A DNA stretch of 32,450 nt, taken from contig JAUCBJ010005417.1 of assembly GCA_032718475.1 (NCBI GenBank), positions 1-32,450 of the forward strand, in the 5' to 3' direction. The notes below the pieces were generated by a model. That model had not been told where the DNA came from and did not search any database. It was given only the letters and a program-made list of their open reading frames with translations. Positions 2,586-23,733 of the stretch are shown here, piece by piece; the stretch's first letter is position 1; every line of letters begins with the position of its first letter. Source of the stretch: Nemertoderma westbladi. Its lineage: Eukaryota; Animalia; Xenacoelomorpha. Position numbers and translations under genes: made by a program.

Positions 2586-2611
2586 GGGGGGGGGGGGGGG
2601 GGGGGGGGGGT
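2586..2611 (+). repeat. Poly-G tract (about 26 nt)
   Basis: Uninterrupted G run in an AT-rich background. Confidence 0.9.
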
Positions 2612-3040
2612 AACTGGACGCAAAACCCGCCTTGGCGAATTAATATCCCGCCTCAATGTAAATTCTCAATTTAGGGAAAGGAGCAGGTTACAGTGGCACG
2701 TTACTTTAACCAAAACAATAAACTAAACACAATACAACAGGTTAGAGTTTTATTTTTGAGAGTAATCAGCTATTATTTGCGTCCAATATCCCCTGGAGAG
2801 GGATGAATTTTTATTGCCTCCAGTTTCCCCCCCTATCTGTATGTGTGAGCCGGGCTCCTAAGAGCGAGTACTGTATATAAAGTATATCATATTCTTGTCC
2901 ACTATTAAGTATTTTTGTTGTTTACCAGCAACAGTGAAGGAGTTGTTTACTATGTTGTTACTTTCTATTGTTGCTTAAAAGTTATATTTTATTGACACCA
3001 CCCAACCTCCAGGACTATTTCTGTCACCAATCTGTCAATC

Positions 3041-3459: not shown

Positions 3460-3874
3460 GTAAGTTTTAACTGTATAATTTCGTAGAAAACAAATATAAT
3501 TTGTTTCCTGTTTACGAACGATCAAGTGACGTCCTTGCCAGATTTTGGCCCACATTGGCAGCAATTGTAAATCGTAACCTTGGGCGCAAATTGTCGCATT
3601 TGAAATAAAACTTATTATGACTCCCTGTTGTCTGTTCTATTGCATCATGAGCCGAGTGTAATTAGAGAAACGTCTTTATTATAATTTATAAAATTCCTTT
3701 AGAATTGTGGAATGTGATGCCTGTTCGGCTAGAGTTCAGAGTGTTTCCTTGGTTACCCATCAACGAGCCACGGGATGTCTCGACAAGTGGATAAAACGTC
3801 AATACGTCGAGAATTTTAAACTTAATCATAAATTATTAATCCAACATAGTCATGATATTAGAACCATGATGTAA

Positions 3875-3973
3875 GTTGTATAATATAGTATGTAACATTG
3901 TTGTCACCAATAATCATACTGATGTTGTATAATATAGTATGTGACATTGTTGTCACCAATAATCAGACTGATG
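3875..3973. repeat. Intronic tandem duplication, 2 x 49 bp
   Basis: TTGTATAATATAGTATGT(A/G)ACATTGTTGTCACCAATAATCA(T/G)ACTGATG occurs at 3876 and 3925, with two mismatches. Confidence 0.9.
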
Positions 3974-4462
3974 CCCAACTGGCATTCTTGATTAATATTG
4001 AGATCATTAATATTGACACCCGGATCGTGAGTATGCAATACGATTTTCGACCTCCCATGTGTATGTTCCGGAACGGTTTTACTCACTATTATTCGATCGG
4101 GAACAGCCCCGGTTTCAAGTTATAAAGTGTGCTATCGTCGGTATATCGTAACGATAATGAAGTTTTGTACAGTTAAATTAATTGTAAAAATTAACACACC
4201 ATTGCATCATCCTCAATCTTAAATTCTTAATATAATATTAAAAAATCCTATTCCACAAATGGAATGGAACCTCCTATCAAATCTATTCAATAACTAGGCC
4301 TCATTATCTCCAGAAATGAAAATGAAAATTGTCATGAAAATGAAAATTGTCTTCAATGTGCGCCACCTTTTTTTATTATTTTTACTATCAGTTTATTACT
4401 GATTAAGTAGGCTGTTAAAGGTACTGACTGACTGCTGACTGACTTTCTTTCATTCCTAACAG

Positions 4463-4661
4463 GTTGAATCGAATGCAAGATGAACAAAAACTTATTTATG
4501 CCGCTAGAGGGATCAAACCGAAAGGTTACAGACGGGTCTATTCAAATTACGGAAGGCCCGAGACAGCGCCTGAAAAATTCCACACCTGGTCGGAAGAAAT
4601 GATGTTTAAAAATAGGTGGGTATTGATTCCAAACACGGATTCAGATACAATGGGATTATAA
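4463..4661 (+). CDS. Probable next coding exon of the RING/TRAF-finger gene
   Basis: A pyrimidine tract and CTAACAG acceptor (AG at 4461-4462) precede it. The phase matches the upstream donor (CG+G = Arg) and opens the 4464-4661 ORF, giving about 205 aa. An alternative donor AG|GTGGGT at 4616 could extend the gene. Confidence 0.6.
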
Positions 4662-4677
4662 CCATAGAACGTGATCA

Positions 4678-7600
4678 TACATATATATGATTTAGAGCAT
4701 ATATAATTAAAGCATATTTAGAGCATATATAATTAAATCATCCATAATTAAACCATATTTAGAGCATATTTAATGAAACCATATTTAGAGCATATTTAAT
4801 TAAACCATATTTAATTAAACCATATTTTGAGCATATTTAATTAAAGCATATATAATTAAACCATATTTAAATCATATTTAATTAAAGCCTATTTAAAGCA
4901 TATTTAGGTAAAGCATATTTAATTAGAGAATATTTAATTAAAGCATATTTAAAGCATATTTAGGTAAAGCATATTTAATTAAAGCATATTTAATTAAACC
5001 ATATTTAGAGCATATATGATTAAAGCATATTTAATTAAACCATATTTAGAGCATATATAATTAAATCATATATAATTAAACCATATTTAGAGCATATTTA
5101 ATTAAACCATATTTAGAGCATATTTAATTAAACCATATTTAATTAATATTTAATTAAAGCATATTTAAAGCATATTTAATTAAAGCATATATAATTAAAG
5201 CATATATAATTAAACCATATTTAAAGCATATATAATTAAAGCATATTTAAAGCATATTTAGGTAAATCATATTTAATTAAAGCATATTTAATTAAAGCAT
5301 ATTTAATTAAAGCATATTTAATTAAACCATATTTAGAGCATATATAATTAAAGCATATATAATTAAACCATATTTAGAGCATATTTAATTAAACTATATT
5401 TAGAGCATATTTAATTAAACCATATTTAGAGCATATTTACTTAAAGCATATTTAAAGCATATTTAGGTAAAGCATATTTAATTAAAGCATATTTAATTAA
5501 AGCATATTTAAAGCATATTTAGGTAAAGCATATTTAATTAAAGCATATTTAATTAAACCATATTTAGAGCATATTTAATTAAACCATATTTAGAGCATAT
5601 TTAATTAAACCATATTTAGAGTATATTTAACTAAACCATATTTACAGCATATTTAATTAAACCATATTTTGAGCATATTTAATTAAAGCATATATAATTA
5701 AACCATATTTAAATCATATTTAATTAAAGCATATTTAAAGCATGTTTAATTAAAGCATATTTAATTAAACCATATTTAGAGCATATATAATTAAAGCATA
5801 TATAATTAGACCATATTTAGAGCATATTTAATTAAACCATATTTAGAGCATATTTATTTAACCATATTTAGAGCATATTTAATTAAAGCATATTTAAAGC
5901 ATATTTAGGTAAAGCATATTTAATTAAAACATATTTAGAACATATTTAATTAAACCAAATTTAGAGCATATTTAATTAAACCATATTTAGAGTATATTTA
6001 ATTAAACCATATTTAGAGCATATTTAATTAAACCATATTTAGAGCACATTAAATTAAATCATATTTAGAGCATATTTAATTAAACCATATTTAGAGCATA
6101 TTTAATTAAACCATATTTAGAGCATATTTAATTAAACCATAATTAGAGCACATTTAATTAAAGCATATTTAAAGCATATTTAGGTAAAGCATATTTAATT
6201 AAAGCATATTTAATTAAACCATATTTAGAGCATATTTAATTAAAGCATATTTAAAGCATATTTAGGTAAAGCATATTTAATTAAAGCATATATAATTAAA
6301 GCATATATAATTAAACCATATTTAGAGCATATATAATTAAACCATATTTAGAGCATATATAATTAAAACATTTTTAGAGCATATTTAATTAAACCATATT
6401 TAGAGCATATTTAATTAAACATATATAATTAAAGCATATATAATTAAACCATATTTAAAGCATATATAATTAAATCATATATAATTAAACCATATTTAGA
6501 GCATATTTAATTAAACCATATTTAGAGCATATTTAATTAAACCATATTTAATTAATATTTAATTAAAGCATATTTAAAGCATATTTAATTAAAGCATATA
6601 TAATTAAAGCATATATAATTAAACCATATTTAAAGCATATATAATTAAAGCATATTTAAAGCATATTTAGGTAAATCATATTTAATTAAAGCATATTTAT
6701 TTAAAGCATGTTTAATTAAAGCATATTTAATTAAACCATATTTAGAGCATATATAATTAAAGCATATATAATTAGACCATATTTAGAGCATATTTAATTA
6801 AACCATATTTAGAGCATATTTATTTAACAATATTTAGAGCATATTTAATTAAACCATATTTAGAGCATATATAATTAAACCATTTTTAGAGCATATTTAA
6901 TTAAACCATATTTAGAGCATATTTAATTAAACATATATAATTAAAGCATATATAATTAAGCCATATTTAAAGCATATATAATTAAAGCATATATAATTAA
7001 ACCATATTTAGAGAATACTTAATTAAACCATATTTAGAGCATATTTAATTAAACCATATTTAGAGCATATATAATTAAACCATATTTAAATCATATTTAA
7101 TTAAGGCATATTTAAAGCATGTTTAATTAAAGCATATTTAATTAAACCATATTTAGAGCATATATAATTAAAGCATATATAATTAGACTATATTTAGAGC
7201 ATATTTAATTAAACCATATTTAGAGCATATTTATTTAACCATATTTAGAGCATATTTAATTAAAGCATATTTAGGTAAAGCATATTTAATTAAAGCATAT
7301 TTAATTAAACCATATTTAGAACATATTTAATTAAACCAAATTTAGAGCATATTTAATTAAACCATATTTAGAGTATATTTAATTAAACCATATTTAGAGC
7401 ATATTTAATTAAACCATATTTAGAGCACATTTAATTAAATCATATTTAGAGCATATTTAATTAAACCATATTTAGAGCATATTTAATTAAACCATAATTA
7501 GAGCATATTTAATTAAAGCATATTTAAAGCATATTTAGGTAAAGCATATTTAATTAAAGCATATATAATTAAAGCATATATAATTAAACCATATTTAGAG

Positions 7601-7962
7601 CATATATAATTAAACCATATTTAGAGCATATATAATTAAACCATTTTTAGAGCATATTTAATTAAACAATATTTAGAGCATATTTAATTAAACCATATTT
7701 AGAGCATATATAATTAAACAATTTTTAGAGCATATTTAATTAAACCATATTTAGAGCATATTTAATTAAACATATATAATTAAAGCATATATAATTAAAC
7801 CATATTTAAAGCATATATAATTAAAGCATATATAATTAAACCATATTTAGAGAATACTTAATTAAACCATATTTAGAGCATATTTAATTAAACCATATTT
7901 AGAGCATATATAATTAAAGCATATATAATTAAACCATATTTAAAACATATTTAATTAAAGTA
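4678..7962. repeat. AT-rich composite satellite of 15-bp (CATATTTAATTAAAS) and 11-bp (CATATTTAGAG / CATATTTAAAG) monomers
   Basis: About 3.3 kb of irregularly alternating monomers. Rare variants recur at spacings of about 1.4 kb and 0.84 kb. Confidence 0.97.
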
Positions 7963-8202
7963 CATTTCCTTTTAAACTTTCACGAGAACCAAGTCCCTAA
8001 CATTGCGTGCGGAATTAAAACTATAGTATTTGTACCATTATAGACCCTTTGATACAATGGAGTTGTTTCAACATAAACCAAGCAGGGATCGTCATCTACC
8101 CGTATCCAGGCAACCAAAAGAACACTTACGCATCCCTACGCGGCCAAATACCACGACTAGTTCAAAAATGGTCTGGTCAGACAATAAAGAACGCAGCCAT
8201 TC

Positions 8203-8780
8203 TAGGGGACCCACCAGCAGTGGTAAGTTTAATAAGGGACCCACTAGCAGTGGTAAGTTTAATAGGGGACCCACTAGCAGTGGTAAGTTTAATAGGGGAC
8301 CCACTAGCAGTGGTAAGTTTAATAGGGGACCCACTAGCAGTGGTAAGTTTAATAGGGGACCCACTAGCAGTGGTATGTTTAATAGGGGACCCACTAGCAG
8401 TGGTAAGTTTAATAAGGGACCCTCTAGCAGTGATAAGTTTAATAGGGGACCCACTAGCAGTGGTAAGGTTAATAAGGGACCCACTAGCCGTGGTAAGTTT
8501 AATAGGGGACCCACTAGCAGTAGTAAGTTTAATATGGGACCCACTAGCAGTGGTAAGGTTAATAAGGGACCCACTAGCAGTGGTAAGTTTAATAGGGGAC
8601 CCACTAGCAGTGGTAAGTTTAATAAGGGACCCAATAACAGTGGTATGTTTAATAAGGGACCCGCACTAGCAGTGGTAAGTTTAATAGGGGACCCACTAGC
8701 AGTGGTCAGTTTAATAAGGGACCCACTAGCAGTGGTAAGTTTAATAGGGGGCCCACTAGCAGTGGTAAGTTTAATAAGTT
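8203..8780. repeat. 30-bp minisatellite (GGGACCCACTAGCAGTGGTAAGTTTAATAR), about 19 copies
   Basis: Head-to-tail 30-bp units with one 2-bp insertion near 8662. Each unit contains the inverted repeat CCACT-AGC-AGTGG. Confidence 0.97.
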
Positions 8781-8900
8781 AAATATGTTTAATAAATTTC
8801 AAAACAATACCTGGTTTTAATGGAATGGCCTTTAAGATGGTAAGCCTATGAGTCTGTGTACCTTATAGGCTGTACTTAAGTAATATGTATGTGATTCCGA

Positions 8901-9168
8901 CGTACATCGCGACGTCGGGGGTCGCCGGTATGCGACGGCGGGGTAGCTCAGTTGGTTGAGCGCCGGGCCTGCAATCTAGTGGTTGTAGGTTCAGCCCCGC
9001 CAGGGTCCACTCAGCCTTTCATCCACTGGGGTCGATAAAATGAGTACCAGTTAAATTACTGGGAGCAAATCATGGGATAGGAGTAGCGCCCACCCCTACC
9101 CTCGGGTAGCAGCTATCGAAAGAGGAGCCTTCGGGTCGCCTCCGGCTTCGGCCGACTGTTTGCTTGCT
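8901..9168 (+). mobile_element. tRNA-derived SINE with a 13-bp TSD
   Basis: TSD TATGTGATTCCGA at 8888-8900 and 9169-9181. The tRNA-like head starts at about 8937, with A box TAGCTCAGTTGG and degenerate B box GGTTCAGCCCC. The central CTCAGCCTTTCATCC..GGGGTCGATAAAATGAGTACCAG resembles, from memory, a conserved metazoan SINE core. The tail is a short TTGC repeat. Confidence 0.88.
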
Positions 9169-10467
9169 TATGTGATTCCGAGAATGTTTCAAAGGTACAT
9201 TACAAAGTTAAACAAAGACACAAATAAACCATGAAACAACCGTAGTTACTGGAAAATTAAATATAGATATTTAATTTAATTTTGTGATAAAAAATGTGTA
9301 ACATAAATTTTCATATTTTTGTGTTTTGTTAACTGAATAATATAATTATTCAACAATAGCGGGCTTTCCAATATTTAGAATGCGGCCCAAGCCCGGCCCG
9401 TGTCCAACTCTGCAGCCCCCCCCCCACACCCCCATGTCTCGTATACCGATGGGTAAATTTTAGAATTTATTTTCAGATTTGCAGCTTCAGATGTTTCAGG
9501 ATAATTCTAGAACGATGCCAACATCATGGGGTCTGTACGTCCGACCGTTATCATCAATTAAAGGACAAACTCTCCCGCTAATAACCACATAAACTTAATT
9601 TATTGCATATTCTAAATGTAGGCCTGTGTGCGTACCCAGTCGTACATTAATACATATATCATATTTACATTATACTGGTGGAAGAAAGGACAATGCCTGA
9701 CTTGATGGATATACAGTAGTATACGTACGTTACCTTAGCATGAGTTAATAATACGGTTTCACAATACTGAAAGTATATTTTATTTCACGTCGTTAAATCT
9801 TGCAAGACTCTCCTCTGTAGCAAGCCCAGAAATTAAATTACTTTAATTGAATCTCCACTTTCACTCGGATTAATTCCATGTTACACCTACGTTATTAAAC
9901 CTGAAATACATACAGTACGTAGTTATCTGTTTATTGTTATTGAATTATTGAGGTTACAAATTTTTTGAATTGTGTTCTTTATTTATTCTAATACATACTA
10001 TAATCGGCCTGCTGCATTGTATCTCCACATTGAGATTGTTATTTTTACATTTCATTTAGATTTTCTAAATCACTCTCTCTCTGTCTCTCTCATTCCCCCT
10101 TTATTATATTTTTTGCCCCATTATTCTCCCTTCTCTTATTTTCTCCTTCCACCTCTTTGATCCCCCCCCCCGTACGCCTATAATCCAGTCTCCTTGGATA
10201 CCAATGCTCAATCATAAGATATTAAATAAAATATGTTGAAAAATATCATAGCGCTATGGAAAATATCCTAATGTTCTTGTCTGGTGAGACAAAATGTTCC
10301 GTGTTAAGTATACCAGTTTTCTGCTGTTATATTTCACTTTGCAGATTTTTTAACGGATACTTTTTCCAACGCGTTACCTTATATTACATATTAAATTTAA
10401 TTATGATGAAGATATAAATTGGTTTATAGATTGATAGATAGGTTTAAACAATAGAATTAAATAGGAT

Positions 10468-12403
10468 TCAACGAATAGAATGTTCTTCAAGTATGTTGAA
10501 GAGGCCGCTATTGTTAGTGGAGTCTACAGTTCCTAGGATCGAGGCCGAGTTGCCGATTAGGATGGCTATCAGGAGTCTTTGCAGCAGGAATCGATGAGAC
10601 CGGGGTTCCTGTGTTGCTTGTCGAATCTTCCTGCCGACCTCTTTCAGGAATGAGGTTGTTGCTGGTCCTGGCTGGCCAAGCGTTTCGAAGGCTACTGGTG
10701 CGAAGAGGTATCCTCGGTCTACTAGTTCTTCGTACTTTCTTGATTTGGTCTCTTCTTGCTCCTCGGCAACACGACCTCCTGCTGATAGACTGGTAGCGAG
10801 ATGGCTGGGCGCTAGAGGGTCTACGACTGTCGCGTCCCACGTCAGGGACTTACCGCGCGACCAATGGATGAGGGTCATGCCGTCTGGGCGTTTACCATCC
10901 ATTCGGCAGAGGCCTGGCGGCTCCAGGATGGACGGAACACCACAGCTGGAGAGTGCGCGCTTTATGATGTCATTTAGCACCGTGTGGCGCGGAATCCGCC
11001 CCCAAGCTCCTCTGGCAGGACAGGCCATGTAGGCCTTCAGTATCGACTTCCTTACCGCATCTGGCGCATGTGTGTTGTTCTGTGACTCAACATCCTAGTC
11101 GAGTAGCGATTGAGATGCGGAACTGACTGTCAGTTAGCTTTAAACCTAGCGACGACGATGGTAGCGCGTCTATCCAGCAACCGGCGACAGGGTCATCTAA
11201 AGAGTTTAGTCGAGCGATATTCTTCGGAGAAGCGGTGCGGCGAAGTGACGCGAGGTTCTCTTCATGGATCGGGTTTGTCCAAGTCTTCTGCATACTTACA
11301 GAGGACGCTGAAGGTTGCTCGCAATCGGTGGCCACCGATCTCTTCCAGAGCTCATAGGCGTGATCAGTTAAGGTGTTTCGAGATGGAGTAGGCGCAGCAG
11401 CGGTGAAAAGACAGCCAGTAAGTTCAGCACATGCAGCCGCAGAAGCCACATAGGCAGAAGGGGCGAGCTGCATGGCTGTATGGCAGGCCTGTATCCACGA
11501 ACTGTCATTGATTCTGACGTTTGCTATTTTCACCAACGCAGACCGCAGTGTATCGTCATATCTTTCCAGAAGCTGTGGAAACAAAATACATGGAGCAGAG
11601 CGGAGGTAATATAGCAGGCGAGGGATTGCGAAAGAGTTCCTAAGCAAGAAGAATCCATGGTGGCTGTCGAGGAGATGAAGCTGGTCGCTAATCAAGGCCA
11701 AGTCGTTTATCTTGTCAGTCAGACAGGACTCTATAGCCTCGGATCCGATTGGGGCCCCTAGCATAATCAGTTGGTCAGCTGAAGGTAACTGGATCTTTCC
11801 GCCACAAACTCTATTGAAATCTTCCTGAATCCGGGCTCGATCATTGTCAGACACTGGACCCAGAAAAAATAGCTCGCACTTCGAGGGGTTTAGGGTGAGG
11901 CCGAGTTTCTTCCCTTCCACAATTATCGTTCTCAGATCGTCTAGAACAATGGTATACAATCCTGCCATGTTACCATCGTCAAGATACCATACGTTGAAAT
12001 CGGATTTCAATGAGTGGATGGTGTCGTTGATCGTGTCTCCGAAGAGAGGGGGTCGTTCAGGGTCACCCTGTTGGGCTCCTTCATCAGAGACTAAGATTTC
12101 ATCACTGTGAACTAGAAAGCTTGAGTTACCATAGTCAGCCAATGTATAGTTATATATGCTGGGATACTTCCTTGCCACAGTCTCGAGGATGGCATCACGT
12201 CGAAGTGAATTGAAGGCATTGCTGAAATCTACCTTCAGCAACACCGTGTTGGGAGCGTTCGTTGAAGATATCAAGGACCGGGTCCCGTGGGCTGCAGCCT
12301 CTGCCCCATTCTTTGTTCCTATTCCTAACTGGATGTGGCCGTAAGATTCGATGCGCTGGTCTTTGACTGTTTGGCTGGCCTATTTGGCACTTAGTCTATA
12401 CCA
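10468..12403 (-). pseudogene. 3' half of a CRE-like non-LTR retrotransposon: RT, CCHC motif and restriction-like (PD-D/ExK) endonuclease
   Basis: Motifs KVDFSNAFN, GAQQGDP, WYLDDG, LNPSKCE, LGAPIG, CARC..H..C, RHTVLNDII, RPDG..WDATV..EETKSRKY and PVAFETLG. In-frame stops at 12380-12382 and 11087-11089, a frameshift near 11000, and the usual LP..GGLG motif appears deleted. Confidence 0.9.
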
Positions 12404-12408
12404 GGTAT

Positions 12409-12932
12409 TGTTAGCTTATTCAATCCCGCTAACACCCCATAAAGTTAAGCCGATAAGCAATATTGGGAGCCACGAGATTGGGTAATTAACCAACTCGTGC
12501 CACCCCAATAAGAATGGGAAGGAAACACACAATGAGGGTCAGGGGCCAAACCCCTAACCCAGAGAGAACAGGTGGAGTGAACGGGAACACTCCAAAGGGC
12601 GCCAACAAGGGTATCAACCAATCAGAGGGGGGAAAGGCATCGATTAGGTAGAGTAACAAGGCCAACCGTGCAATATAGCCACTTGGCAGTAATCATATCA
12701 GTTCAGTTATCTCAGTGCAATATTGGTGCTAGTTTAGGTTAGATAGTTTAGCTAGGGAAGGACCGGGACTTTAGTTACCGTATCCCGCCTTCCGTGTACA
12801 ACAACCTATATCTATATCTTTATACCGATCATTATATACAACGAACAACAGGAACTCATTTACTCTTTACACACGGCGGGGACGCGTGAACTAACACCGG
12901 ATAAACCGGGATCCCTCTTGGATCCCGTCACA
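12409..12932 (+). repeat. 5' LTR
   Basis: TGTTAG...GTCACA. Identical to 24361-24884 by eye except at 12668/24620 and 12780/24732 (G versus A). Confidence 0.97.
12618..12716 (+). promoter_or_regulatory. Putative LTR core promoter
   Basis: CCAATCAG at 12618, TATA-like AATATA at 12672-12677, and initiator-like TCAGT at 12698, 12703 and 12712, starting about 25-30 nt after the TATA-like box. Confidence 0.5.
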
Positions 12933-12996
12933 GTAACTAAATCCAGCTGCCGCCCTAGATAAACTCAGCGACTACCAGCCACCAATCCAGAGATAA
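12933..12996 (+). other. Non-tRNA primer-binding region complementary to LTR 12707-12778
   Basis: There is no TGG for about 160 nt after the LTR. Four collinear blocks are complementary to the LTR's predicted R region. Confidence 0.7.
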
Positions 12997-13001
12997 AGAA
13001 G

Positions 13002-14477
13002 ATGAGTCGGTCAGGCGAGACGACACCGACGCGGACCCCGGACGAAGAGCTAACGATCCGCGAGGCCGCAACCAGGCGATACAGGCCCACGACGCTGGAG
13101 CCATCGGTAACGGGCGAACCGGAGATTCAAGATGAGGGGGGCCGTCTGGAGTCAGAAGTCGAGTCGAGAGGAGGGGGAGTCGAGTCGGAGGATAGAGAGA
13201 ACGAGCTCGAGGGAGAAAGAGACGAGTCGACACGGAACGAGGGTCGACGTGCCGATGTCGCGGGCCAGCCACAGGCCGAGAGCGACGAACGGCCCACCGA
13301 GACGGCGACGGTGGGGCCGACGGTACGACGTCGGACCCGGAGAGACGACGGAGATGTCGATACCGATGTCGCCGGCCAGGCACAGGCCGAGGGCGACGGA
13401 CGGCCCACCGGAACGGCGATGGTGGGGCCGCCGGTACGACGTCGAACCCGGAGAGAGGGACGAGAGGTCGGCGACGAGGACGTCGGGGTCTCCGATCGAC
13501 TCCGACGGGCCTACAACGCGACCCGGAGATTACTAGAGGAGGCCAGAAAGGGGAAAACGATAGACGAGGTAAAACTAAAGTCAGGACTAGGTAAGTCGGA
13601 CAGACATTTATACTATCTAATGCGCTTCGGGCAGAGAGAATTGGCCGAGGAGAGAGCAAAAGGGGTTGCCAGCGAACTGTTTGGACTATGGGAATGTGGG
13701 AGTATGGAACCTAGCGTAGCGTCAGTGTACATAGGGCCATACTTGGTCGATGCCCGGGGAGTAAAATTAGTGGGTTGGAGGGGACCTGAAGGGGGCGAAT
13801 CCGAGGTTAACCCCGAGGATTCGGCCTCGTCGGTCGGAGGAAGTTCCGGGAAGCAGGGGAAAGTTAGTAGATCGGGAAGGCGGAGGGAGTCCGTCGTAAC
13901 CGATAAGTCTGCTACATCCTCCGCGAAAGAAATACTGGTGAGAGAGGCAGGTGCCGCGTACCGTCTCAACCTGATAGAGCAAGGTCAGAGGGAAATGGAT
14001 AAACGGCTAGAGGAGGGGAGAATGCGGCTAGAGAGGGAAGCGGCATTGATTAGAGAAACCGGAGAGAGGGCCGAAAGGGCTTTGAGAGGCCTTAGGGAGT
14101 GTGAGGAAATAGAGGAAAAGGAGTGTAGGGAGCGTGAGGCGAGAGAGGAAAGGGAACGCAAGGAGCGTGAGGCAAGGGAGGAAAGGGAACGCAAAGAGCG
14201 TGAGGCGGAACGCAAGGAGCATGAGGCGAGAGAGGAAAAGGAACGCAAGGAGCATGAGGCGAGACGGGAAAGTGAACGCAAGGAGCGTGAAGCGAGGCGA
14301 AGGGAGAGCGCTAGGAGAGTAGCAGAGTTGGCTGAGCGGGACGCGCGGGAGTGTGAGAGGAGAATGGTAGAAGCTGAGCGAGAGCATAAGGAATTAAAGA
14401 GACGCCAAAGTGAGCTTGCGGAACATAGGATTAGACGCGCGCACGAGCTGCAACTGGTGCGGGCGGGGGCGTCCTGA
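13002..14477 (+). CDS. N-terminal segment of the element's gag-pol (491 aa; charged repeats and coiled coil)
   Basis: First ATG after the LTR. Contains a 2 x 111-bp repeat (13252 and 13363), a short globular-looking stretch, and EREAREERERK 33-bp repeats. Confidence 0.7.
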   Translation: MSRSGETTPTRTPDEELTIREAATRRYRPTTLEPSVTGEPEIQDEGGRLESEVESRGGGVESEDRENELEGERDESTRNEGRRADVAGQPQAESDERPTETATVGPTVRRRTRRDDGDVDTDVAGQAQAEGDGRPTGTAMVGPPVRRRTRREGREVGDEDVGVSDRLRRAYNATRRLLEEARKGKTIDEVKLKSGLGKSDRHLYYLMRFGQRELAEERAKGVASELFGLWECGSMEPSVASVYIGPYLVDARGVKLVGWRGPEGGESEVNPEDSASSVGGSSGKQGKVSRSGRRRESVVTDKSATSSAKEILVREAGAAYRLNLIEQGQREMDKRLEEGRMRLEREAALIRETGERAERALRGLRECEEIEEKECREREAREERERKEREAREERERKEREAERKEHEAREEKERKEHEARRESERKEREARRRESARRVAELAERDARECERRMVEAEREHKELKRRQSELAEHRIRRAHELQLVRAGAS

Positions 14478-16341
14478 GAGCGGGACTGGCTCGAGTATTT
14501 TAGGGGAGCCAGGGGCCGTGGATACATTTATTAATACCCCACTCACAGGGACCGCACGACAGACCCAAAACTGGTGTGACCGTACGGGCGGGGGGGGGGG
14601 GGGGGGGGGGGGGGGTAATAACGATAATGCTACAGTAGGCGTGGTTAATATTAATAGTACCGTATGGGATAATTCTAATCAAACCTTTATTGCAGGAAAT
14701 ACTTTGCCTAGTGATAGTAATTTAAATTTAAATCAGAACAATCCTAGTATTAACGTAGAAAATGATTCTAATATTAATGTAGCTACACAAAATAATCCAA
14801 ATAATCAAAATAATAACCCAAATTCGAACCTACAAAATAATTTAAGTAACGCAATTACACAAAATAATCCAAATAACTTAAATAGTGATCCGAGCCCGAA
14901 TTTACAAAATAATTCAGATAGTGTAGTCGCGCAAAGTAATTCAAATGATTTTGTTTCGAACGAACAAATTGATTCCGTTTCCAATATGGGTGCTATTAAC
15001 GTAAACACGTCGGGCGTGTATGGCCAGACAGACGGGGGCCTGGTAGGCCACGCAGTTGGTGGGCCGGGAGTGGCTGGGTTAGGTAGACCCGGCGAGGGCC
15101 TGGTAGGCCACGCAGTTGGTAGGCAGGGAGTAGAGGGCCTGGTAGGCCTCGTAGTTGGTAGACCCGGAGCAGAGGGCCTGGGAGGCCACGTAGTTGGTAG
15201 GCAGGGAGCAGAGGGCCTGGTAGGCCACGCAATAGCAGAGGGAGAGGCGGGGGTGAATAGACCCGACCGCGATAGGGTTGATGTGTCGACTAGAGGGGGA
15301 TATAGTAGCGTAGTGAGGGATAGCGAAGTTGGATGTGGCGAGTGGGGGGGGGGGGGGGGGGGGGGGGGCTACGAGGGGCCCCACAACAGCGAGTCAGCGG
15401 CGAAAGGGGGGGGGGGGGCAGAGAGTGTCCCACAGCCGTCAGCGGATAATGCGCGGGCCGAAATAGGTAAACCGCAACACCCGGCGACGGAGAGTAATAG
15501 GGGGATTGCGAGTATCCCCAGCGGCGTGCGACCGAGTAGAGAGAGACAGGTTGACGTCGTGAGAGGGCGGACGAAGCGTCGAGCCCGATCAGAAGAGGGA
15601 AGAAGAACAGTGGGATTTAACCGGGAGGTCGACGAGAGATCTCACGAGCGGGAATACTCCACTGAAAGGAGAAGAAGAGAAGACAGTAGTAGAAGTATCG
15701 CCGCGAACGATAGAAGAGCGAGGACGGATAGCGAGCCGTCGGTAGTCGAGATGAGAACAGAGAGTCAGTGGGGTCGGACTCCGGGAGATTGCCGTCGCCC
15801 CGGAGAGATGCGACCCGGCGAGGCGCACTACGCGCCGAGAGAGGGGTACGCGATGTACCGGTACGAAGATGAGAACAGTAGAGAGGGGGGTCGAAGAGAA
15901 ACTTTCCGACGGAATATACCTACCGATCGAGAATACGGTAGCCGCGGGGAGGACTATTCGAGAAGAATAAACTTCGATCCCGAGCGACACATGCAGACTG
16001 TAGGACATACTGTAGGCCTTACTGCACATACCATAGGCCATACTGAGAGAGGCAATGTAGGCGATAGGATAGCGTGGACAACGGGATTAAACCCGGAAGT
16101 CGCGGAATACATACCGGCGAGTAGGCCAGAAGCTGATAGGCCTATACCGGTACCAGTACAGCAGTATGACTACAGCATGCAGGGACATAACATATACCCA
16201 GGGGAGGGGGGAATTATTGCGGATAGGTGTATGGGCCCCAATATATTAACATCAACCCCAGTACCAAACATACCGGTGGGGGGGGGGGGGGGGGACAGGG
16301 TGACATTCCCCCATCACAATATCAACAATATACCCCGATAG
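14410..16341 (+). CDS. Middle low-complexity segment of gag-pol (Asn-rich, Gly-rich and Arg/Glu-rich)
   Basis: The only open frame between the flanking ORFs, shifted +1 relative to both. Both overlaps contain G runs. Includes 39-bp repeats (EGLVGHAVGRQGA). Confidence 0.65.
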   Translation: MSLRNIGLDARTSCNWCGRGRPESGTGSSILGEPGAVDTFINTPLTGTARQTQNWCDRTGGGGGGGGGGNNDNATVGVVNINSTVWDNSNQTFIAGNTLPSDSNLNLNQNNPSINVENDSNINVATQNNPNNQNNNPNSNLQNNLSNAITQNNPNNLNSDPSPNLQNNSDSVVAQSNSNDFVSNEQIDSVSNMGAINVNTSGVYGQTDGGLVGHAVGGPGVAGLGRPGEGLVGHAVGRQGVEGLVGLVVGRPGAEGLGGHVVGRQGAEGLVGHAIAEGEAGVNRPDRDRVDVSTRGGYSSVVRDSEVGCGEWGGGGGGGGYEGPHNSESAAKGGGGAESVPQPSADNARAEIGKPQHPATESNRGIASIPSGVRPSRERQVDVVRGRTKRRARSEEGRRTVGFNREVDERSHEREYSTERRRREDSSRSIAANDRRARTDSEPSVVEMRTESQWGRTPGDCRRPGEMRPGEAHYAPREGYAMYRYEDENSREGGRRETFRRNIPTDREYGSRGEDYSRRINFDPERHMQTVGHTVGLTAHTIGHTERGNVGDRIAWTTGLNPEVAEYIPASRPEADRPIPVPVQQYDYSMQGHNIYPGEGGIIADRCMGPNILTSTPVPNIPVGGGGGDRVTFPHHNINNIPR

Positions 16342-19300
16342 GAGCAAGAACAACGAGACCCTTGGATGAGAATAGGTCGTGTGACACAGAAATATGGAGG
16401 GGGCCGCTACCCCCGATGACATACCCAAGTCAAAGAAAGTCAAGAAATAGGACGGACGAACCGCACCAGACAGGAGAAACTATGCAGCACCCATCGAATC
16501 CATTGGAAGCGCAGGCGATGGGGATGGCCACGTTGATCGATGCGTTGAAAACGAGGATCGAGTTACCACCCGTGGAACCATTCAAATTCGATGGGAGTAG
16601 GCCGGAAGAATATTTACAGTTTCGGCGCATGTATAGTAACGAAATACTAACAAAGAACTTGACGCAGGCGGAGTGCCTAAAGTATCTGCAAGTATACACG
16701 GGAGGCCCAGCATACGATATCGTGAGGCAATATCAAGGAATAGAGGGCGGCTTCACGACAGCATGGCGGGCACTGGACAGGGAATACGGGCACCCGGCCA
16801 AGATCATCAGACAGACACTGAGGGGCATAACATCGGGTGGCCTACAGGATAATCCCGTTAGCATTAAGACATTTGCTAACAAAGTTGAAAAGGCGCTAAT
16901 CGTGCTGAAGACGCTAGACGCGCCATACGAGCTCAACGCGTCCAACAACATCACAACGATAGCGCAGGCACTACCGAACTGGCTGCGCAACAAGTGGAGG
17001 AAAATCGCTTTCTCCACTCGAGATAGGAAGGGTGCGGAACCGGGTTTAGAAGAAATGTCAAGCTTCTTAAACTACGAGGCTGAACTAATAACTGACCCAG
17101 TCTATAGCGAAGATAGCCTGGGAAAGGGACCGAAGACGGATTACCATAGACCGAAGCCAGAGCACAATACATCAAACGCATTACCGAGGCTCAGGCAATC
17201 ATTGCCATATGCAGCGACGCAGGGGACTGCAAGTCCACAGCTAGCCGAAGATGAGATCACACCATGGAACGGACAGGGGAACAATAACAACACGAATAAA
17301 TATAACCCCAGTACGTCCAGTAGGCCGAATCCAAACAATAAGAATAGTAGGGACTTTGGTACAAACGCAACTGCGATACGCAATGCGCTGTATAAGGAGG
17401 GCTACGACCCAAAGAGCAAATGCCAGCTACACGCAAATGCGCTTCATCAAACCATGAACTGCAGGTACTGGCAGGCGCTACCTAGGCAAGATCAGATAGA
17501 TTACGCGTTGAGCAATAAAATCTGCTCACGGTGTGTGATGAGTGGACATAGAGCTAGGGAATGCAAAGAGAAGCCGGTAAAGTTCGGTCAGAGGAGAGGC
17601 CAAACGATGGCAACGAGCACAGTAGGGGCGAAGAAGAGAGGAACGGTGTTACTTGGAGTAGTACCCGTACGAGTGATTGGGGAAGGCAATCGATCAGTAA
17701 CAACACTAATGCTGGTTGACAGTGGAGCTGCCTTCACACTAGTCGAGGAATGGGTGGCCGAAGAGATAGGATTGAGAACGAGGCCAAGCAGAATGGCGGT
17801 AACAACCATCTCTAGCAAAGATGAGATCCTGGAGATGAGAACAGGACGGTGCGCAATTGCAGCAGTGGCACCGGGATGCGACTACGGGGCAACCATCGAC
17901 CCCATCCAAGTGATAGAGTCAATTAATATCAATGCCAGGCGGCCAACCAACATCGAGGTCGAGCAGTATAAATTCCTGGACGACATTGACTTCTCAATCC
18001 CAGACGTGGACGTTAGGAAGGTGTCCATCATAGTAGGTATGGACTGCCCAACGGCCCACGAAAGAATGCAAACGGTCTTCGGCGAAGACAAGCAGAGTGA
18101 CCCGGTGGCCATATTAACACCATTCGGGTGGACGCTGAGTGGTCCAATCAAGAGCAAGATACCATTTAGGATGTCGGAGACATCAGGATGCATGTTCGCG
18201 GGAACAATGCAGGAAATGGGTGACGAGGGAGCAGAGGAGCAGCTCAAAAGACTGCTCAGACAAGATTTCGAGGGACTGAAAGAAACCGGGGTCGGGACCT
18301 CGGTAGAAGACAAGCAGGCTTTACAAAGCGTGGAGGAATCGATGACATGCGATGAGGGGCGGTATACTATAGGAATGGTATGGAAACTACCGAAGATACC
18401 GCTGCCCGACAATAGAGGGATGGTACTCACGAGACTCCGCAAGCTGAAACAAACACTAAAACGGAGCCCCGAGAAGAATGAGTACATCCACAGAACGATT
18501 AAGAAGTACGTCGAGAAGGGATGGGCTGTGGAGTTACCGGTCGACGAGCCGAACACGGACAGGACATATTACCTGCCACTACACGTGGCTTTAGATCCAA
18601 AGAAAGGTAAACTACGGATGGTAGTCGACGCATCGGCAAAGACCGACAGAAAATGCTTAAACGACTACCTGTTAGAAGGCCCAAACATATACAATTCGGG
18701 CATAGAGGTGTTACTTAGATTTAGAAATGGGAAACACGCCTTCACGTGTGACATAGAAGGCATGTTCAACCAAGTCCGTGTAACGAAAGAAGATAGCGAC
18801 AGTCAACGCTTCTTATGGTATAACGGCGAGGAAGAACCGTCGATAATACCGGCATATAAGATGGTAGTACAAAACATGGGGGCCAAGTCGTCTTCATTTA
18901 CGACGACTATGGCAGTGAGAGACACAGTGAAGGGGAAGGAAGATAGATACAGCACTAGGGCCGTCGATATGATTCGACGCGGCTTCTACGTAGACGACGG
19001 AATGGAGTCTGGAAATACGGTTAAGGAGATACTGGACACGGGGCGCGAGGTTCGCGACATTTTAAAAGGATCCGGCTTTAACCTGACCAAATTCCAATCC
19101 AGTTCGGAAGAATTTATCAAGGCGATAGAGGACAAAAGACCAGAATCGACCATGGATAATCCCACAACAGCCAAAGGGCAGGACATGGCGATTAAGAGAA
19201 CAGAATCTCAACAGAAGGCATTGGGAATCGTGTGGGATAGAGAGACAGACGAACTGAAGTATCAGCTGAGCCAAGAGGGCGCAGACATCCACACGAAGAG

Positions 19301-21617
19301 GGGCTATGTATCGTATATAGCAAGGATATACGATCCCCTAGGCCTAGCATCCCCATTATTAGTCACGGGAAAACAGATACTCAAGAGAGTATACAAATTG
19401 AAAGATGAGTGGGACGTAGAGGTACAAGAAGAAATCAAGAAACAGTGGAGTAAGTGGACAGGAGACTTGGAGAAGATGGGAACATACAACATGCCTCGAG
19501 TGTATTTCCCGGATGGGAACATGACGAGTCTGGACCTACACATGTTCTCCGATGCGTCGTTGGAGGCGTACGGAGTGGCACTCTATTTAGTACAACGAGA
19601 GGGGGCTCATAAGCCCAGACTAGCCTTTAGCAAAGCAAAGTCAACGCCGCCAGATTCAGCATCAGTTCCCAAGTTAGAATTGACAGCTGCGAGACTAGGA
19701 GTTAGAGCCACAGCCTACCTAGTGGATACTATTCCCAACATAGTGGAGACACACTACTGGACGGACTCCATGGTAGTGCTTGGTTGGCTACATAACGAAA
19801 GGACGAGATACCCGATATTCGTCGCAAATAGAGTGGACGAAATAAGGGCGACCACAGAACTGGAAAGGTGGCACTACTGCCCAACAGACGAAAACCCAGC
19901 GGACTTGTTGTCGAGGGGCGTGGTACGCCACACTTTCTTGAAGAAGGAAGTATTGTGGCAACATGGGCCACAATTTCTGAGCGATAAGGAGGCCTGGCCG
20001 CCGATGAGAAAGGTGGATCCGGGCTCAGAAGTAGTGTCAGAGGGAGAAGAGGGAGATTCAGAGGGAGAAGAGATATACTCCCAAATGGTGAGGGAGATTA
20101 GGGACGTGCAACCAAGAGGAGAAATGTGCGATGACCCGACGGATAAACTCCTCAGCTACAGTTCTAGTTGGTATAAGACCAAGAAACTAGTGGCGTACTG
20201 GAGAGCCTTCGGGAATTTCCTTGCGGGAGTTGGCAAGGACAAGAAGATCAGAACAACCATAGATCTGGAAGGAGCGGCCAAGGCAGTGATCCGCTATGAA
20301 CAACGGAAGAACTATGGCGACGAGGTGGAACGCGTCGGTAACCAACAGCACCTCCGACGGGACAGCGAGTTGATTACGCTGTCGCCACAACTCAATGACG
20401 ACGGGATTCTAGTAATGAATTCTAGGGTGGGATACAACAACAGCATAGTCGTACCACCGAAACCCATCATCATTCCCACAGGATCGCCAATAGTCCACCA
20501 GATTATCTGGGACTCCCACAAATCGATATTGCATGGGGGCACCAACCGAACCCTCACAGAGATAAGGAGGACCTATTGGGTCAAACAATTGAGGAAGAAG
20601 GTAAAAGCGGTAGTGGGGCAGTGCCAGACCTGCCGACGAGCGAAGAAGGAGCGAGCCGTACAGGAGATGGCGCCACTACCGGCGAGTAGGGTAAGACAGC
20701 ACGACCCGCCATTTACGCATTGCGGTGTGGACATGTTCAGGCCGATAAAGATCAAAGTGATGCGACACACGGAGAAACGCTACGGCATCATCTTCGTATG
20801 CAACAACACACGGGCGGTAGGGATAGAACTCGCCCAAGATGCAACCGCATCAGCATTTATTAATGCCTTAGAAAGGTTTAGAGACCGCAAAGGTGGGACG
20901 ATCGCAGTGATATACAGCGACAATGGCACCATCTTTGTGGGCGCAGAGAGTGAGATGGCAGAGGCCTTGGACATCTTGGAGGGAGAAGAAGTCAGGGCAG
21001 CCATGAGACGACGACAAGTAAAGTGGGAGAGAAGGACGCCGTATGCACCACATACACTAGGATGCGTCGAGAGACTGGTGGGCAGTTCAAAGCGTCTAAT
21101 GACGAAGCTAATGAACACCCACATGGTCACTGAAGACGTCTTACGGACAGTGCTTGCGAAGTGCGAGGGTATCATTAATAGCAGACCGCTATATCCGGAG
21201 AATGATGACCCTGAGTCATTAGACGTGCTGACGCCTAGCCATTTTCTGATGGAGAGGCCAGCGACCATCGATATGCGGGGTGTAGACCCAGATGACATAC
21301 ACTCCCGCCAAAGTTGGAAAGTCGCTAAAGCAATAAGCGCAGAGTATTGGAGGAGGTGGGTCGAGGAATACCTACCCACACTCCATAAAAGAAGCAAGTG
21401 GAGGAAGCCAAATAGGGAGTTAAGAAAGGGAGATCTCGTAATCGTTATGGATGATACTATCATCAACAACCAATGGCGGTTGGCGAGAGTCGGGGGCACT
21501 TACTCCGATGAGGACGGAAGAGTCCGATCGGTAGAAGTGCGGATAGGTGGTAAGATAGGTGCGAAGGACAGAAAAACCTACAGGAGAGCTGTAGGGAAAT
21601 GCTGTCTGCTAGAATGA
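16227..21617 (+). CDS. BEL/Pao Gag-Pol: capsid-like domain, zinc knuckles, aspartic protease, RT, RNase H, integrase and C-terminal domain
   Basis: KFDGSRPEEY (gag); CQLH..H..C and CSRC..H..C; LVDSGA; YYLPLH, RMVVDAS, CDIEGMF, FYVDD; YDPLG, FSDAS, PKLEL, WTDS, NPADLLSRG; H..H..CQTC; GVDMF, SDNGT, VERLV; WRRWVEEYLP..RSKW. Confidence 0.96.
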   Translation: MYGPQYININPSTKHTGGGGGGGQGDIPPSQYQQYTPIGARTTRPLDENRSCDTEIWRGPLPPMTYPSQRKSRNRTDEPHQTGETMQHPSNPLEAQAMGMATLIDALKTRIELPPVEPFKFDGSRPEEYLQFRRMYSNEILTKNLTQAECLKYLQVYTGGPAYDIVRQYQGIEGGFTTAWRALDREYGHPAKIIRQTLRGITSGGLQDNPVSIKTFANKVEKALIVLKTLDAPYELNASNNITTIAQALPNWLRNKWRKIAFSTRDRKGAEPGLEEMSSFLNYEAELITDPVYSEDSLGKGPKTDYHRPKPEHNTSNALPRLRQSLPYAATQGTASPQLAEDEITPWNGQGNNNNTNKYNPSTSSRPNPNNKNSRDFGTNATAIRNALYKEGYDPKSKCQLHANALHQTMNCRYWQALPRQDQIDYALSNKICSRCVMSGHRARECKEKPVKFGQRRGQTMATSTVGAKKRGTVLLGVVPVRVIGEGNRSVTTLMLVDSGAAFTLVEEWVAEEIGLRTRPSRMAVTTISSKDEILEMRTGRCAIAAVAPGCDYGATIDPIQVIESININARRPTNIEVEQYKFLDDIDFSIPDVDVRKVSIIVGMDCPTAHERMQTVFGEDKQSDPVAILTPFGWTLSGPIKSKIPFRMSETSGCMFAGTMQEMGDEGAEEQLKRLLRQDFEGLKETGVGTSVEDKQALQSVEESMTCDEGRYTIGMVWKLPKIPLPDNRGMVLTRLRKLKQTLKRSPEKNEYIHRTIKKYVEKGWAVELPVDEPNTDRTYYLPLHVALDPKKGKLRMVVDASAKTDRKCLNDYLLEGPNIYNSGIEVLLRFRNGKHAFTCDIEGMFNQVRVTKEDSDSQRFLWYNGEEEPSIIPAYKMVVQNMGAKSSSFTTTMAVRDTVKGKEDRYSTRAVDMIRRGFYVDDGMESGNTVKEILDTGREVRDILKGSGFNLTKFQSSSEEFIKAIEDKRPESTMDNPTTAKGQDMAIKRTESQQKALGIVWDRETDELKYQLSQEGADIHTKRGYVSYIARIYDPLGLASPLLVTGKQILKRVYKLKDEWDVEVQEEIKKQWSKWTGDLEKMGTYNMPRVYFPDGNMTSLDLHMFSDASLEAYGVALYLVQREGAHKPRLAFSKAKSTPPDSASVPKLELTAARLGVRATAYLVDTIPNIVETHYWTDSMVVLGWLHNERTRYPIFVANRVDEIRATTELERWHYCPTDENPADLLSRGVVRHTFLKKEVLWQHGPQFLSDKEAWPPMRKVDPGSEVVSEGEEGDSEGEEIYSQMVREIRDVQPRGEMCDDPTDKLLSYSSSWYKTKKLVAYWRAFGNFLAGVGKDKKIRTTIDLEGAAKAVIRYEQRKNYGDEVERVGNQQHLRRDSELITLSPQLNDDGILVMNSRVGYNNSIVVPPKPIIIPTGSPIVHQIIWDSHKSILHGGTNRTLTEIRRTYWVKQLRKKVKAVVGQCQTCRRAKKERAVQEMAPLPASRVRQHDPPFTHCGVDMFRPIKIKVMRHTEKRYGIIFVCNNTRAVGIELAQDATASAFINALERFRDRKGGTIAVIYSDNGTIFVGAESEMAEALDILEGEEVRAAMRRRQVKWERRTPYAPHTLGCVERLVGSSKRLMTKLMNTHMVTEDVLRTVLAKCEGIINSRPLYPENDDPESLDVLTPSHFLMERPATIDMRGVDPDDIHSRQSWKVAKAISAEYWRRWVEEYLPTLHKRSKWRKPNRELRKGDLVIVMDDTIINNQWRLARVGGTYSDEDGRVRSVEVRIGGKIGAKDRKTYRRAVGKCCLLE

Positions 21618-21769
21618 GCACCTTAGTGGAGTTAGAAAAGAGTTTAGTCGTCCAAGATTTGGACTGAGGGGGGTGGGATTGAGGGCGAGACGCCCTTCCC
21701 ACACAAAAAAATAGAAAATAAAAATAAAAATAATAAGTACATAGTAGGTACGCAGTTAGTAGGCAGAAG

Positions 21770-22390
21770 TTAGTTAAGAGGTACGTAGTACCTAGTTAGT
21801 TAGTTAGTTAGGAGGTACGTAGTACCGATAGTTAGAGAGTTAGAGGGTACGTAAGTACCGCTAGTTAGTTAGAGTTAGAGGGTACGTAAGTACCGCTAGT
21901 TAGTTAGAGAGTTAGAGGGTACGTAAGTACCGTTAGTTAGTTAGAGAGTTAGAGGGTACGTAAGTACCGCTAGTTAGTTAGAGTTAGAGGGTACGTAAGT
22001 ACCGCTAGTTAGTTAGAGTTAGAGGGTACGTAATACCGCTAGTTAGTTAGAGAGTTAGAGGGTACGTAAGTACCGTTAGTTAGTTAGAGAGTTAGAGGGT
22101 ACGTAAGTACCGCTAGTTAGTTAGAGAGTTAGAGGGTACGTAAGTACCGTTAGTTAGTTAGAGAAGAGTTAGAATTAGAGGGTACGTAGTACCGTTAGTT
22201 AGAGAAGAGTTAGAGGGTACGTAGTACCGTTAGTTAGAGAAGAGTTAGGAGGTACGTAGTACCGTTAGGTAGAGAGTTAGAGGGTACATAGTACCGTTAG
22301 GTAGAGAGTTAGAGGGTACGTAGTACCGTTAGTTAGAGAGAAAGTAAGAGTTAGAGGGTACGTAGTACCGTTAGTTAGAGAGAGAGTAAG
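21770..22390 (+). repeat. Tandem array of about 17 units (31-46 bp, mostly about 35) inside the element, each with GGTAC-GTA(A)-GTACC
   Basis: Repeated AGAGGGTACGTAAGTACCG(C/T) separated by variable numbers of TTAG and AG units. Confidence 0.93.
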
Positions 22391-22740
22391 AGGTAGAAGG
22401 GTATATAAGATATAGATATTAGTTAGCAGTTAGTAGCGAGAGGGGGGCATATGAGTACAGTTGGATAGATCGTGTAGGCCGCGCGACATATACTGCTGTA
22501 CTGCACAGGCCCACAGAGTAGGCCAGAATGTGGATTAGGAGATAGAATAACCCATAGGCAGTAGCAAGTAATAGGAAACAGTAAGGTAGTAGGATTGAAA
22601 TTAAATCAAAATAAAATTAGAATAAGAATAGGGCTAAGAAGGGGAACAAATTATGGTAACAGTAGTAAGAATAGGCAATAACTCAGAAATTCAGAAAGAG
22701 ATAGGCCATCGAACTGAACTTAAACCACCTAAACCCATCA

Positions 22741-23733
22741 CTCATCACGTTTGCGCCTTGGCAAGGCACCACCTACGGGTGAGCGATCGGGCAGAGTTCG
22801 AGATGGCAGGCAAACTTGTGAGAGAGGAGAGAAGCAGAGGAGAGGGAGGAGGAAGCTAGGGCGCAGAGCTACGGCTTCGAGGAATAAGCAGCCTTTGACG
22901 AACTTCGTTGGGCTTCGTCAGGGAGTTCGGGGGAGTCTCTAGGGAAAGAACTGGGGTGGACGGTGGGATCACCGAAACAGTCGACGTCGGGATTGCAAGC
23001 GATGCCCATACCAGCGGGTGCCAAGGGCGAACAACCGCAAAGGAAGTTAAGGGAGCTAGAGGGATGGAGAGCTACGGGCGAGAGCCAAGGCGGGAAGGGA
23101 CATAGTGGGTCCACCGGGATACCGGGGTTGGGACCACTGCGAGAGGAGGACGGGGACGACGGCGAGTTCGGAGAGATGCCGCCCATCGAGAGGATAGGTT
23201 ACTCGGACACGGACTGGGTTGGCGGGAGGGTGGTGACGGCCAGTGGGGCGAGAGCCTTCTGGGACAAACCCGGCAAGCGGGCCTGGGTGCACGAGGAGCC
23301 GGCGATGGATTTCGCCGGGTGCACTATCAGGTTGGGCAAGCAACCGGGGACGACACCACGGGTAGTACTCGGAGAGACGATGCCCGGGAGGGGCGAGGAG
23401 ATCGACGTAGACAGGGACGCTAACGTCTAGAAGTTTGCCTATCAGCGACTCCACAGACCGCGGAGATCGCTTGGGATGAAAGACGACGTGGGGCGGGAGA
23501 CATTGGTACTCGGTTGCGGCTACTGTGGGAGACAGACCCACTAGGAAAGGAGCTGCTTGTACCGGTTCCAGAAAGGGACCAGCTGTCTCTACTGCCACGA
23601 GACGAGCCACAGGATGGGAGCGTGTCCACGGTTGCAGAACCGATGTCCGAAGTGCAACTTTCGGGGACACCACGGACGCCAAGGAGGGATGGACTGAGGC
23701 TTTGATGTAGTGCGCCTGGAAGGCGCCACGTGA
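22741..23733 (+). pseudogene. Stop-interrupted accessory reading frame ending in three CCHC-type zinc knuckles
   Basis: Continuing the 22963-23430 frame gives CGYCGRQTH*ERSC, CLYCHETSHRMGAC and CPKCNFRGH. Stops at 22780, 22819, 22885, 23428, 23542 and 23695. The 5' limit is uncertain. Confidence 0.75.

Follow-up and report, generated by a model that had tools for sequence, protein, structure and literature searches.

A BEL/Pao-type Retrotransposon of Nemertoderma westbladi Likely to Prime Reverse Transcription with Its Own RNA

The retrotransposon described here lies on the plus strand at 12409–24884 of a 32,450-nucleotide stretch of DNA from the xenacoelomorph Nemertoderma westbladi (assembly GCA_032718475.1, contig JAUCBJ010005417.1, positions 1–32,450), which we refer to as a whole as the window. 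It is a young element, BEL/Pao-type by its proteins and atypical in its priming. From the arrangement of its 5' end we consider it likely, with a probability of about 0.6, that it primes reverse transcription with its own RNA, since the bases that follow its 5' long terminal repeat (LTR) are complementary, from the very first one, to a stretch inside that same LTR. All features of the element given below are on the plus strand.

RESULTS

Complementarity between the Leader and the LTR

Three features independently define the end of the 5' LTR (12409–12932, 524 bp), namely the 3' LTR copy, the TG...CA ends and a duplication of the target site GGTAT (12404–12408, repeated at 24885–24889). This end agrees with the position proposed in an earlier reading made from the letters alone (hereafter the sequence-only reading). 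That reading had also described four collinear blocks of pairing between the leader and the LTR, and each was recovered where it had been placed. The first joins 12933–12941 to 12770–12778 at nine of nine positions and continues past a one-base bulge with 12942–12944 opposite 12766–12768; the second joins 12953–12965 to 12745–12757 (12 of 13), the third 12980–12986 to 12722–12728 (7 of 7) and the fourth 12990–12996 to 12707–12713 (7 of 7). The proposed primer-like geometry holds as well, with C12778 facing 12933, the first base outside the LTR, and pairing from offset 0. The predicted self-primer arm thus occupies 12700–12778 in the R region, with its core at 12770–12778 and a 3' end that would be C12778. 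The primer-binding position is 12933–12944, and the outer leader arm with its three blocks (12953–13000) pairs with 12702–12757 and ends just before the ATG at 13002.

The absence of TGG behind the 5' LTR, another claim of that reading, was likewise upheld. The nearest is at 13096, none lies within 163 bases of the LTR end, and the site at 13096 reads C in nearly all of the contig depth of four public runs. A full-length transfer RNA (tRNA) primer needs a TGG, and such a primer is therefore excluded. ARAGORN found no tRNA in the window nor in 60 of the 79 relative loci described below.

The complementarity between leader and LTR is beyond chance. Local alignment of the 73 post-LTR bases with the reverse complement of the LTR gave a score of 52, compared with 22.0 ± 3.8, and this score was reached by none of 5000 dinucleotide shuffles and by none of 155 other internal segments. 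The duplex of 12700–12778 with 12933–13005 has a calculated energy of −46.6 kcal/mol, whereas 155 segments average −26.7 and the best of them reaches −39.3. The fold of the whole region has a z of −2.67, with one of 100 shuffles as good. In the modeled structure the pairing extends to about 39 pairs over a contiguous fold-back of roughly 70 bases, stopping 1–5 bases ahead of the first ATG. The outer three blocks are mostly 0.75–1.0 formed in the predicted ensemble at each of the four end points used, and an 8-bp hairpin just inside the LTR end (12907–12927) has a pair probability of 0.89–1.00. The primer core has a second predicted partner inside the LTR at 12888–12900, a region that varies among copies, and the two folds are practically equal in energy (−81.1 and −81.0 kcal/mol). 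Rfam gave no match in 12400–13200.

Identity and Age of the Element

The BEL/Pao assignment, first made in the sequence-only reading, is borne out by the Pfam domains Peptidase_A17, DUF1759 and DUF5641 and by the order of the motifs. An uninterrupted gag-pol frame of 1,796 codons (16227–21617) contains DUF1759, zinc knuckles, protease, reverse transcriptase (RT, with YVDD at 18987), a Peptidase_A17/RNase H region with acidic motifs, integrase and DUF5641. The protease, RT, RNase H and integrase motifs follow one another in that order without a stop. The Pfam E-values are 2.8e-39 for Peptidase_A17, 1e-23 for DUF5641 and 9.7e-11 for DUF1759; the integrase zinc domain was also matched, and PF05380 is present in the homologs listed. 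The LTR length and a polypurine tract of nine bases (24352–24360) adjoining the 3' LTR (24361–24884, 524 bp) fit the BEL/Pao criteria (LTRs of 0.2–1.2 kb, tract of about 10 bases).

The profile of the Belpaoviridae (Semotivirus) by the International Committee on Taxonomy of Viruses assigns to them a tRNA-Arg or tRNA-Gly site of 18 bases and a genome size of 4.2–10 kb, and calls their replication poorly understood (PMC8742986). The element shares with that family its LTRs, the polypurine tract, the order of protease, RT, RNase H and integrase and the family-specific Pfam domains, and departs from the profile in its length of 12,476 bp, above the range, and in having no 18-base tRNA site, which is why we file it as BEL/Pao-type by proteins with atypical priming. 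Its RT is at most 38% identical to relatives among the 120 listed of 546 matches, and at most 39% among the 150 listed in a second search; protein scans of viral contigs yielded no relative.

The two LTRs differ at 2 of 524 places (12668 and 12780) and the target duplication is intact, so that the element must have moved recently. At each of these places a CpG has become CpA, a pattern suggestive of changes driven by methylation once the element had inserted.

Copies in Public Sequencing Runs of the Same Species

Six public runs, designated X1, X2 and so on, hold the element or part of it, and none is recorded as RNA. A first survey of contigs covered four DNA runs from three samples; a second, narrower survey covered three runs, with a complete table of substitutions at 10% or more. 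The contigs of the four DNA runs show a high-copy family. The depth in X1 is 111,000 at the LTR end, 65,000–73,000 at 13022–13063 and 1,200–2,800 in 12959–13000, so that most internal copies carry another leader; no part of the 5' end is shared less than the leader as a whole (12945–13010), which has an X1 depth of about 1,200–12,000 against 65,000–111,000 on either side. Among the listed joints at which contigs quit this leader and rejoin at 13000–13051 (a count beyond which lie 339 loose ends), all eight quit after 12934–12944 and keep the GT, and a one-off deletion of a TGG site is thereby disfavored. The sequence-only reading had raised the possibility that this copy is a deletion derivative of a TGG-bearing family, and the listed contigs of the four runs show no sign of it. 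The deepest alternative joint quits after 12942, with a depth of 380 in X1, 886 in X2 and 144 in X3.

Thirty substitutions at 10% or more fall in 12678–12769 and none in 12770–12800, the stretch in which the X2 depth peaks at about 54,000; the one nearest to the core is the bulged base, 12769. Within 12700–12778, variable places make up 4 of the 39 paired and 11 of the 40 unpaired positions (Fisher p = 0.08). Three of the ten listed changes at paired places (12752, 12959 and 12996, in blocks 2 and 4 or at an edge), which can be judged with no change at the partner, keep or add a G-U pair. Position 12944 reads G in 30–60% of the depth of four runs, at the cost of one self pair. Run X6, guessed to be RNA, holds a single contig of 187 bases, less than 90% alike, over 12620–12719, and is uninformative on start or splicing. 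An exact 24-base junction pattern had no match in metagenome contigs.

Self-pairing in Distant BEL/Pao Relatives

A metagenome scan returned 79 loci at 31–37% RT identity. The curated count comprises 13 families in which the LTR end could be fixed from repeat pairs, seven with both LTR ends visible and six with an inferred end that was picked by eye after the sequence had been viewed; it omits the duplicates L014, L020 and L021 and about 16 loci with assembly overlaps only or unclear ends. Controls were drawn from the internal region of each element itself, 400 tries apiece. A match of 10–12 bases to the element's own LTR, 0–5 bases from the LTR end, was present in five of the seven visible-end families and five of the six inferred-end families, each with a score reached by 0–3 of its 400 controls. 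The sequence-only reading had asked for such pairing to be conserved in related families; what we find is that it recurs at this position in unrelated BEL/Pao families (10 of 13), with the same geometry in letters unrelated to those of the window. TGG lies within 5 bases of the LTR end in two families, L032 and L051, neither of which has a self match.

Nine of the ten self-pairing relatives would rely on a splice junction, the primer end being made up of the 3–7 bases that follow it. Among the visible-end families, L009, L013, L027 and L050 match their own LTR over 11–12 bases across a GT-AG intron of 77–186 bases, and in L022 the match, of 11 bases, is contiguous and lies in the 3' LTR; five of the inferred-end families have a 10–11-base junction match, and L059 has none. 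The best register starts with GT at nine of the ten sites, L050 having GT one base in, and the site in the window starts with GT as well.

Two further observations concern these loci. A canonical LTR intron of 77–426 bases, with a junction complementary over 10–12 bases to the post-LTR site, was seen in L004, L009, L013/L014, L017, L024, L027, L034, L035, L042, L050 and L063. In L022 (130–345 and 6694–7103), an acceptor-like stretch stands directly before the primer end in one LTR; in the other the upstream exon is joined at that point, giving the contiguous 11-base match. The two may be copies of a single family, one with the intron and one lacking it.

Other Features of the Element and the Window

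Upstream of the gag core, 13002–16341 holds about 1,150 codons in two overlapping frames without a Pfam match, one of 491 residues, charged and repetitive (13002–14477), and one of 647 residues from stop to stop, of low complexity (14398–16341). This region contains an Arg/Glu/Lys-rich repeat, an Asn-rich stretch and long G runs, and the changes of frame fall within 14398–14477 and 16227–16341. The 2.7 kb after pol (21618–24360) carry tandem repeats of 32–37 bases at 21795–22396, a frame of 180 codons (22888–23430) without a Pfam match and a Cys/His-rich frame of 27 codons from 23614; no env-like frame was seen there. A perfect 9-bp inverted repeat (24325–24349) ends two bases ahead of the polypurine tract.

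Outside the element, minus-strand frames at 10468–11968 and 24843–25954 are interrupted by it. We take them to resemble a non-LTR retrotransposon protein; they have no Pfam match at 0.001, and two of the pieces show no likeness. Two direct repeats of about 235 bases (26718–26951 and 28597–28835), 96–98% identical, 1.88 kb apart and starting with TGTTG, are perhaps a small non-coding LTR-like element. Three satellite arrays, from 4616 onward, at 8113–8874 and at 30412–32413, have units of 11/15, 30 and 58 bases.

DISCUSSION

How Self-priming Would Proceed

The 5' LTR contains letters that we take to be promoter- and initiator-like motifs (12618–12716): CCAAT at 12618, a TATA-like AATATA at 12672 and TCAGT at 12698, 12703 and 12712. 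Transcription would run from the TCAGT motifs, near 12700, downstream of the CCAAT and TATA-like motifs, and we infer a start at about 12700–12705; the core lies 70–79 bases downstream of the initiator-like motifs. The first 79 or so bases of the transcript would fold onto the leader, the RNA would be cut after C12778 by the RNase H of the element, by analogy with Tf1, and RT, starting from C12778, would copy past the LTR boundary and produce a minus strong-stop DNA of about 154 bases. The open frame contains the acidic motifs of RT and RNase H. Strand transfer would go through the part of R beyond 12779 and the removed 5' piece would be restored from the 3' LTR copy, a scheme in which the poly(A) site must lie beyond the equivalent of 12779. 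No AATAAA or ATTAAA occurs anywhere in the LTR; the nearest signal-like stretch is 12890–12895, where 12895 reads A in 56–68% of depth (X1–X3). The outer blocks would hold the short core of 9 + 3 bases against the competing fold, a job that the 11–12-base match would do in the relatives.

Several results weigh against this proposal. The core is only about 0.55 formed in the predicted ensemble, because 12888–12900 competes for the same bases, and it consists of nine contiguous bases only, a length reached by 4 of 400 null sites. One minor leader form retains seven core bases and two others retain 2–4. Invariance at this level is not confined to the core, since the promoter stretch 12620–12677 is likewise free of substitutions at 10% (X2 and X5). 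Seven of the ten listed changes at paired places (12723, 12724, 12725, 12944, 12986, 12990 and 12992) break a pair in the register of the window, in contigs too short to link the leader and LTR arms and so to join these changes to any at their partners. The long duplex is seen in none of the 13 relatives, whose best score is 36 against 52, and a blind scan of the 79 loci was noisy, with 8 of 24 testable loci positive against 9 of 72 controls and 55 of the 79 untestable; it added L042 and L063. In a tree of 75 RT sequences over 526 columns (five of the 79 loci, with short matches, were left out, and no named reference elements were included), the RT of the window sits on the longest branch, with a support of 0.53, in the group that holds both TGG elements, nearer to these two than to most self-pairing ones. 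The behavior of the relatives need therefore not carry over to it; long-branch attraction is a possible cause of this placement.

Alternative Explanations

Stems between the 5' R region and the leader are general in retroviruses, and the duplex could be real and yet have another job, such as control of translation at the ATG at 13002, packaging, dimer formation or poly(A)-site choice, with some other host RNA or an unknown molecule as the primer. The greater stability of the outer blocks, the equal-energy competitor of the core and the end of the duplex just short of the first ATG are in keeping with such a role. It nevertheless leaves unexplained why pairing begins at the first post-LTR base, why TGG is absent and why the same offset and GT are found in unrelated families, and we regard it as unlikely, although it is the alternative that survives best.

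The sequence-only reading had named complementarity of a host tRNA or tRNA fragment to 12933 onward as a finding that would count against self-priming. Full-length tRNAs are excluded as described above; for fragments the outcome is less favorable, since the 11 bases that end mouse 5'tiRNA-37-LeuTAG-1, a published 5' half of tRNA-Leu(UAG) (PMC11551137), are complementary to 12937–12947 (offset +4), with three more pairs past a bulge (14 in all). A host tRNA-Leu(UAG) cleaved directly behind its anticodon could supply a 5' half that primes here, with the fold-back playing a regulatory part and hiding the site. The pairing of the mouse fragment is worth −22.7 kcal/mol and that of the self core by itself −12.1, and by a rough estimate an 11-base match has a chance of 0.0007–0.003 (six offsets and 500–2000 assumed fragment ends). 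Half-tRNA priming (the type of Osser, Bryco and Bianca) exists in Ty1/copia lineages and, among plant elements, is described in PMC6317226 for copia only. On the other side, the match was found post hoc and to a mouse sequence rather than that of the host; it is broken at 12944, in its middle, in 30–60% of depth; and in the deepest alternative leader only 6 of its 11 bases survive, compared with all 9 of the self core. The whole R/leader duplex, at −46.6 kcal/mol, is far stronger, and none of the 13 relatives needs a tRNA half except possibly L059. We therefore judge this primer to be rather improbable.

Splicing inside the LTR would be the route of most self-pairing relatives, and here an AG at 12773–12774, four bases ahead of the primer end, could act as the acceptor; with a donor GT at 12738 the junction would give 10 pairs, one of them G-U. 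The intron (12738–12774) would however be 37 bases long, with a weak, non-canonical donor that varies among copies (changes at 12737–12743) and no pyrimidine tract, and its removal would take away 12745–12757, with which the best block pairs. No more than 8 pairs result from longer introns, the unspliced form already has 9 + 3, and we consider a spliced primer very unlikely. Scarcely credible, too, is a short or terminated transcript that ends at C12778, or at its 3' LTR equivalent, and pairs in trans: the same bases stand in both LTRs and no special cleavage by RNase H would be needed, but the LTR lacks the usual poly(A) signals, its only signal-like stretch lies beyond the core, and polyadenylation would leave the end blocked. 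Least credible of all is the loss of a normal TGG site from this copy by deletion or rearrangement, with the complementarity as a by-product of, for example, a template switch, for although sharing among contigs is lowest in the leader, the listed contigs of three samples, including forms less than 90% identical, span or leave the junction with GT, the pairing blocks are interrupted as expected of an old structure, and this form moved recently.

Relation to Known Systems

Self-priming with the element's own RNA, to return to the explanation we prefer, is known from Tf1, where no tRNA site is present and a cut by RNase H between bases 11 and 12 frees the primer (PMC7175516 and PMC4600332; the mechanism also appears in PMC5443660). 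As in Tf1 and Tf2 of Schizosaccharomyces pombe, Tj1 of S. japonicus and the Tf1/sushi group, the element has no tRNA site, its post-LTR bases are complementary to its own LTR RNA (9 bases at offset 0, 12 with the bulge, and three further blocks) and a cut would be required. It differs from Tf1/sushi, which belong to the chromovirus lineage of Ty3/gypsy, in having BEL/Pao proteins, and whereas self-priming is proven for Tf1 it is predicted here. Most likely, by this analogy, it is a known mechanism in a variant form, within a superfamily described as tRNA-primed, and the element would work like Tf1 without belonging there.

Self-primers have also been predicted for the plant elements Tcn1 (gypsy) and TAR/Houba/Osr-1 (copia), with at least 10 bases complementary to the LTR at 0–5 bases after it (PMC6317226). 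These belong to other superfamilies, and the 9 contiguous bases of the window (12 with the bulge) fall just under that cut-off. With the splice-junction BEL/Pao families the element shares the absence of TGG, a site starting with GT at 0–5 bases from the LTR end and pairing with its own R region. Their match, however, arises only on removal of a GT-AG intron of 77–426 bases, and they have no long duplex; in the window the match is contiguous, with about 39 pairs, and a canonical LTR intron with a 10–12-base junction match was not found. The window would add to these an isolated lineage with a contiguous fold-back of about 70 bases, a built-in competing fold and a tRNA half as rival; the intron-less fold-back appears, on present comparison, to be particular to this lineage.

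Literature searches, with subscription journals, Repbase, GyDB and supplements outside their scope, found no paper on a self-priming BEL/Pao element, nor one that pairs an 11-base motif at the inferred start with Tf1. The primer terms searched are absent from the main text of PMC3118150, PMC6238403 and PMC2774666. Achilles, a BEL/Pao element, uses tRNA-Tyr according to PMC4580426, and PMC13524379 and PMC3286476 treat tRNA sites of gypsy elements.

Implications

We tentatively suggest, as a possibility rather than an expectation, that priming without a tRNA occurs widely in BEL/Pao and takes two forms or more. In one, splicing within the LTR would create a primer end of 11–12 bases; in the other, represented here, an intron-free primer of about 79 bases would pair along the whole leader up to the start codon, and its flipping to the second partner inside the LTR could act as a switch between translatable and primed RNA. 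If this is true, none of the other self-primers that we found predicted for LTR elements would come near this one in length, and self-priming may have originated here separately from Tf1 and from the spliced families.

The element is a good test case, being young, high in copy number and divided into subfamilies with differing leaders, and it would reveal whether an RNA-RNA structure that lies 80 bases within a transcript is open to cleavage by RT/RNase H. If self-priming is true, it would explain why filters based on tRNA sites miss such elements, and BEL/Pao would become the third LTR superfamily with proposed tRNA-free priming. It would then also bear on whether hairpin priming preceded tRNA priming, a possible ancestral state put forward as a hypothesis in PMC3601003.

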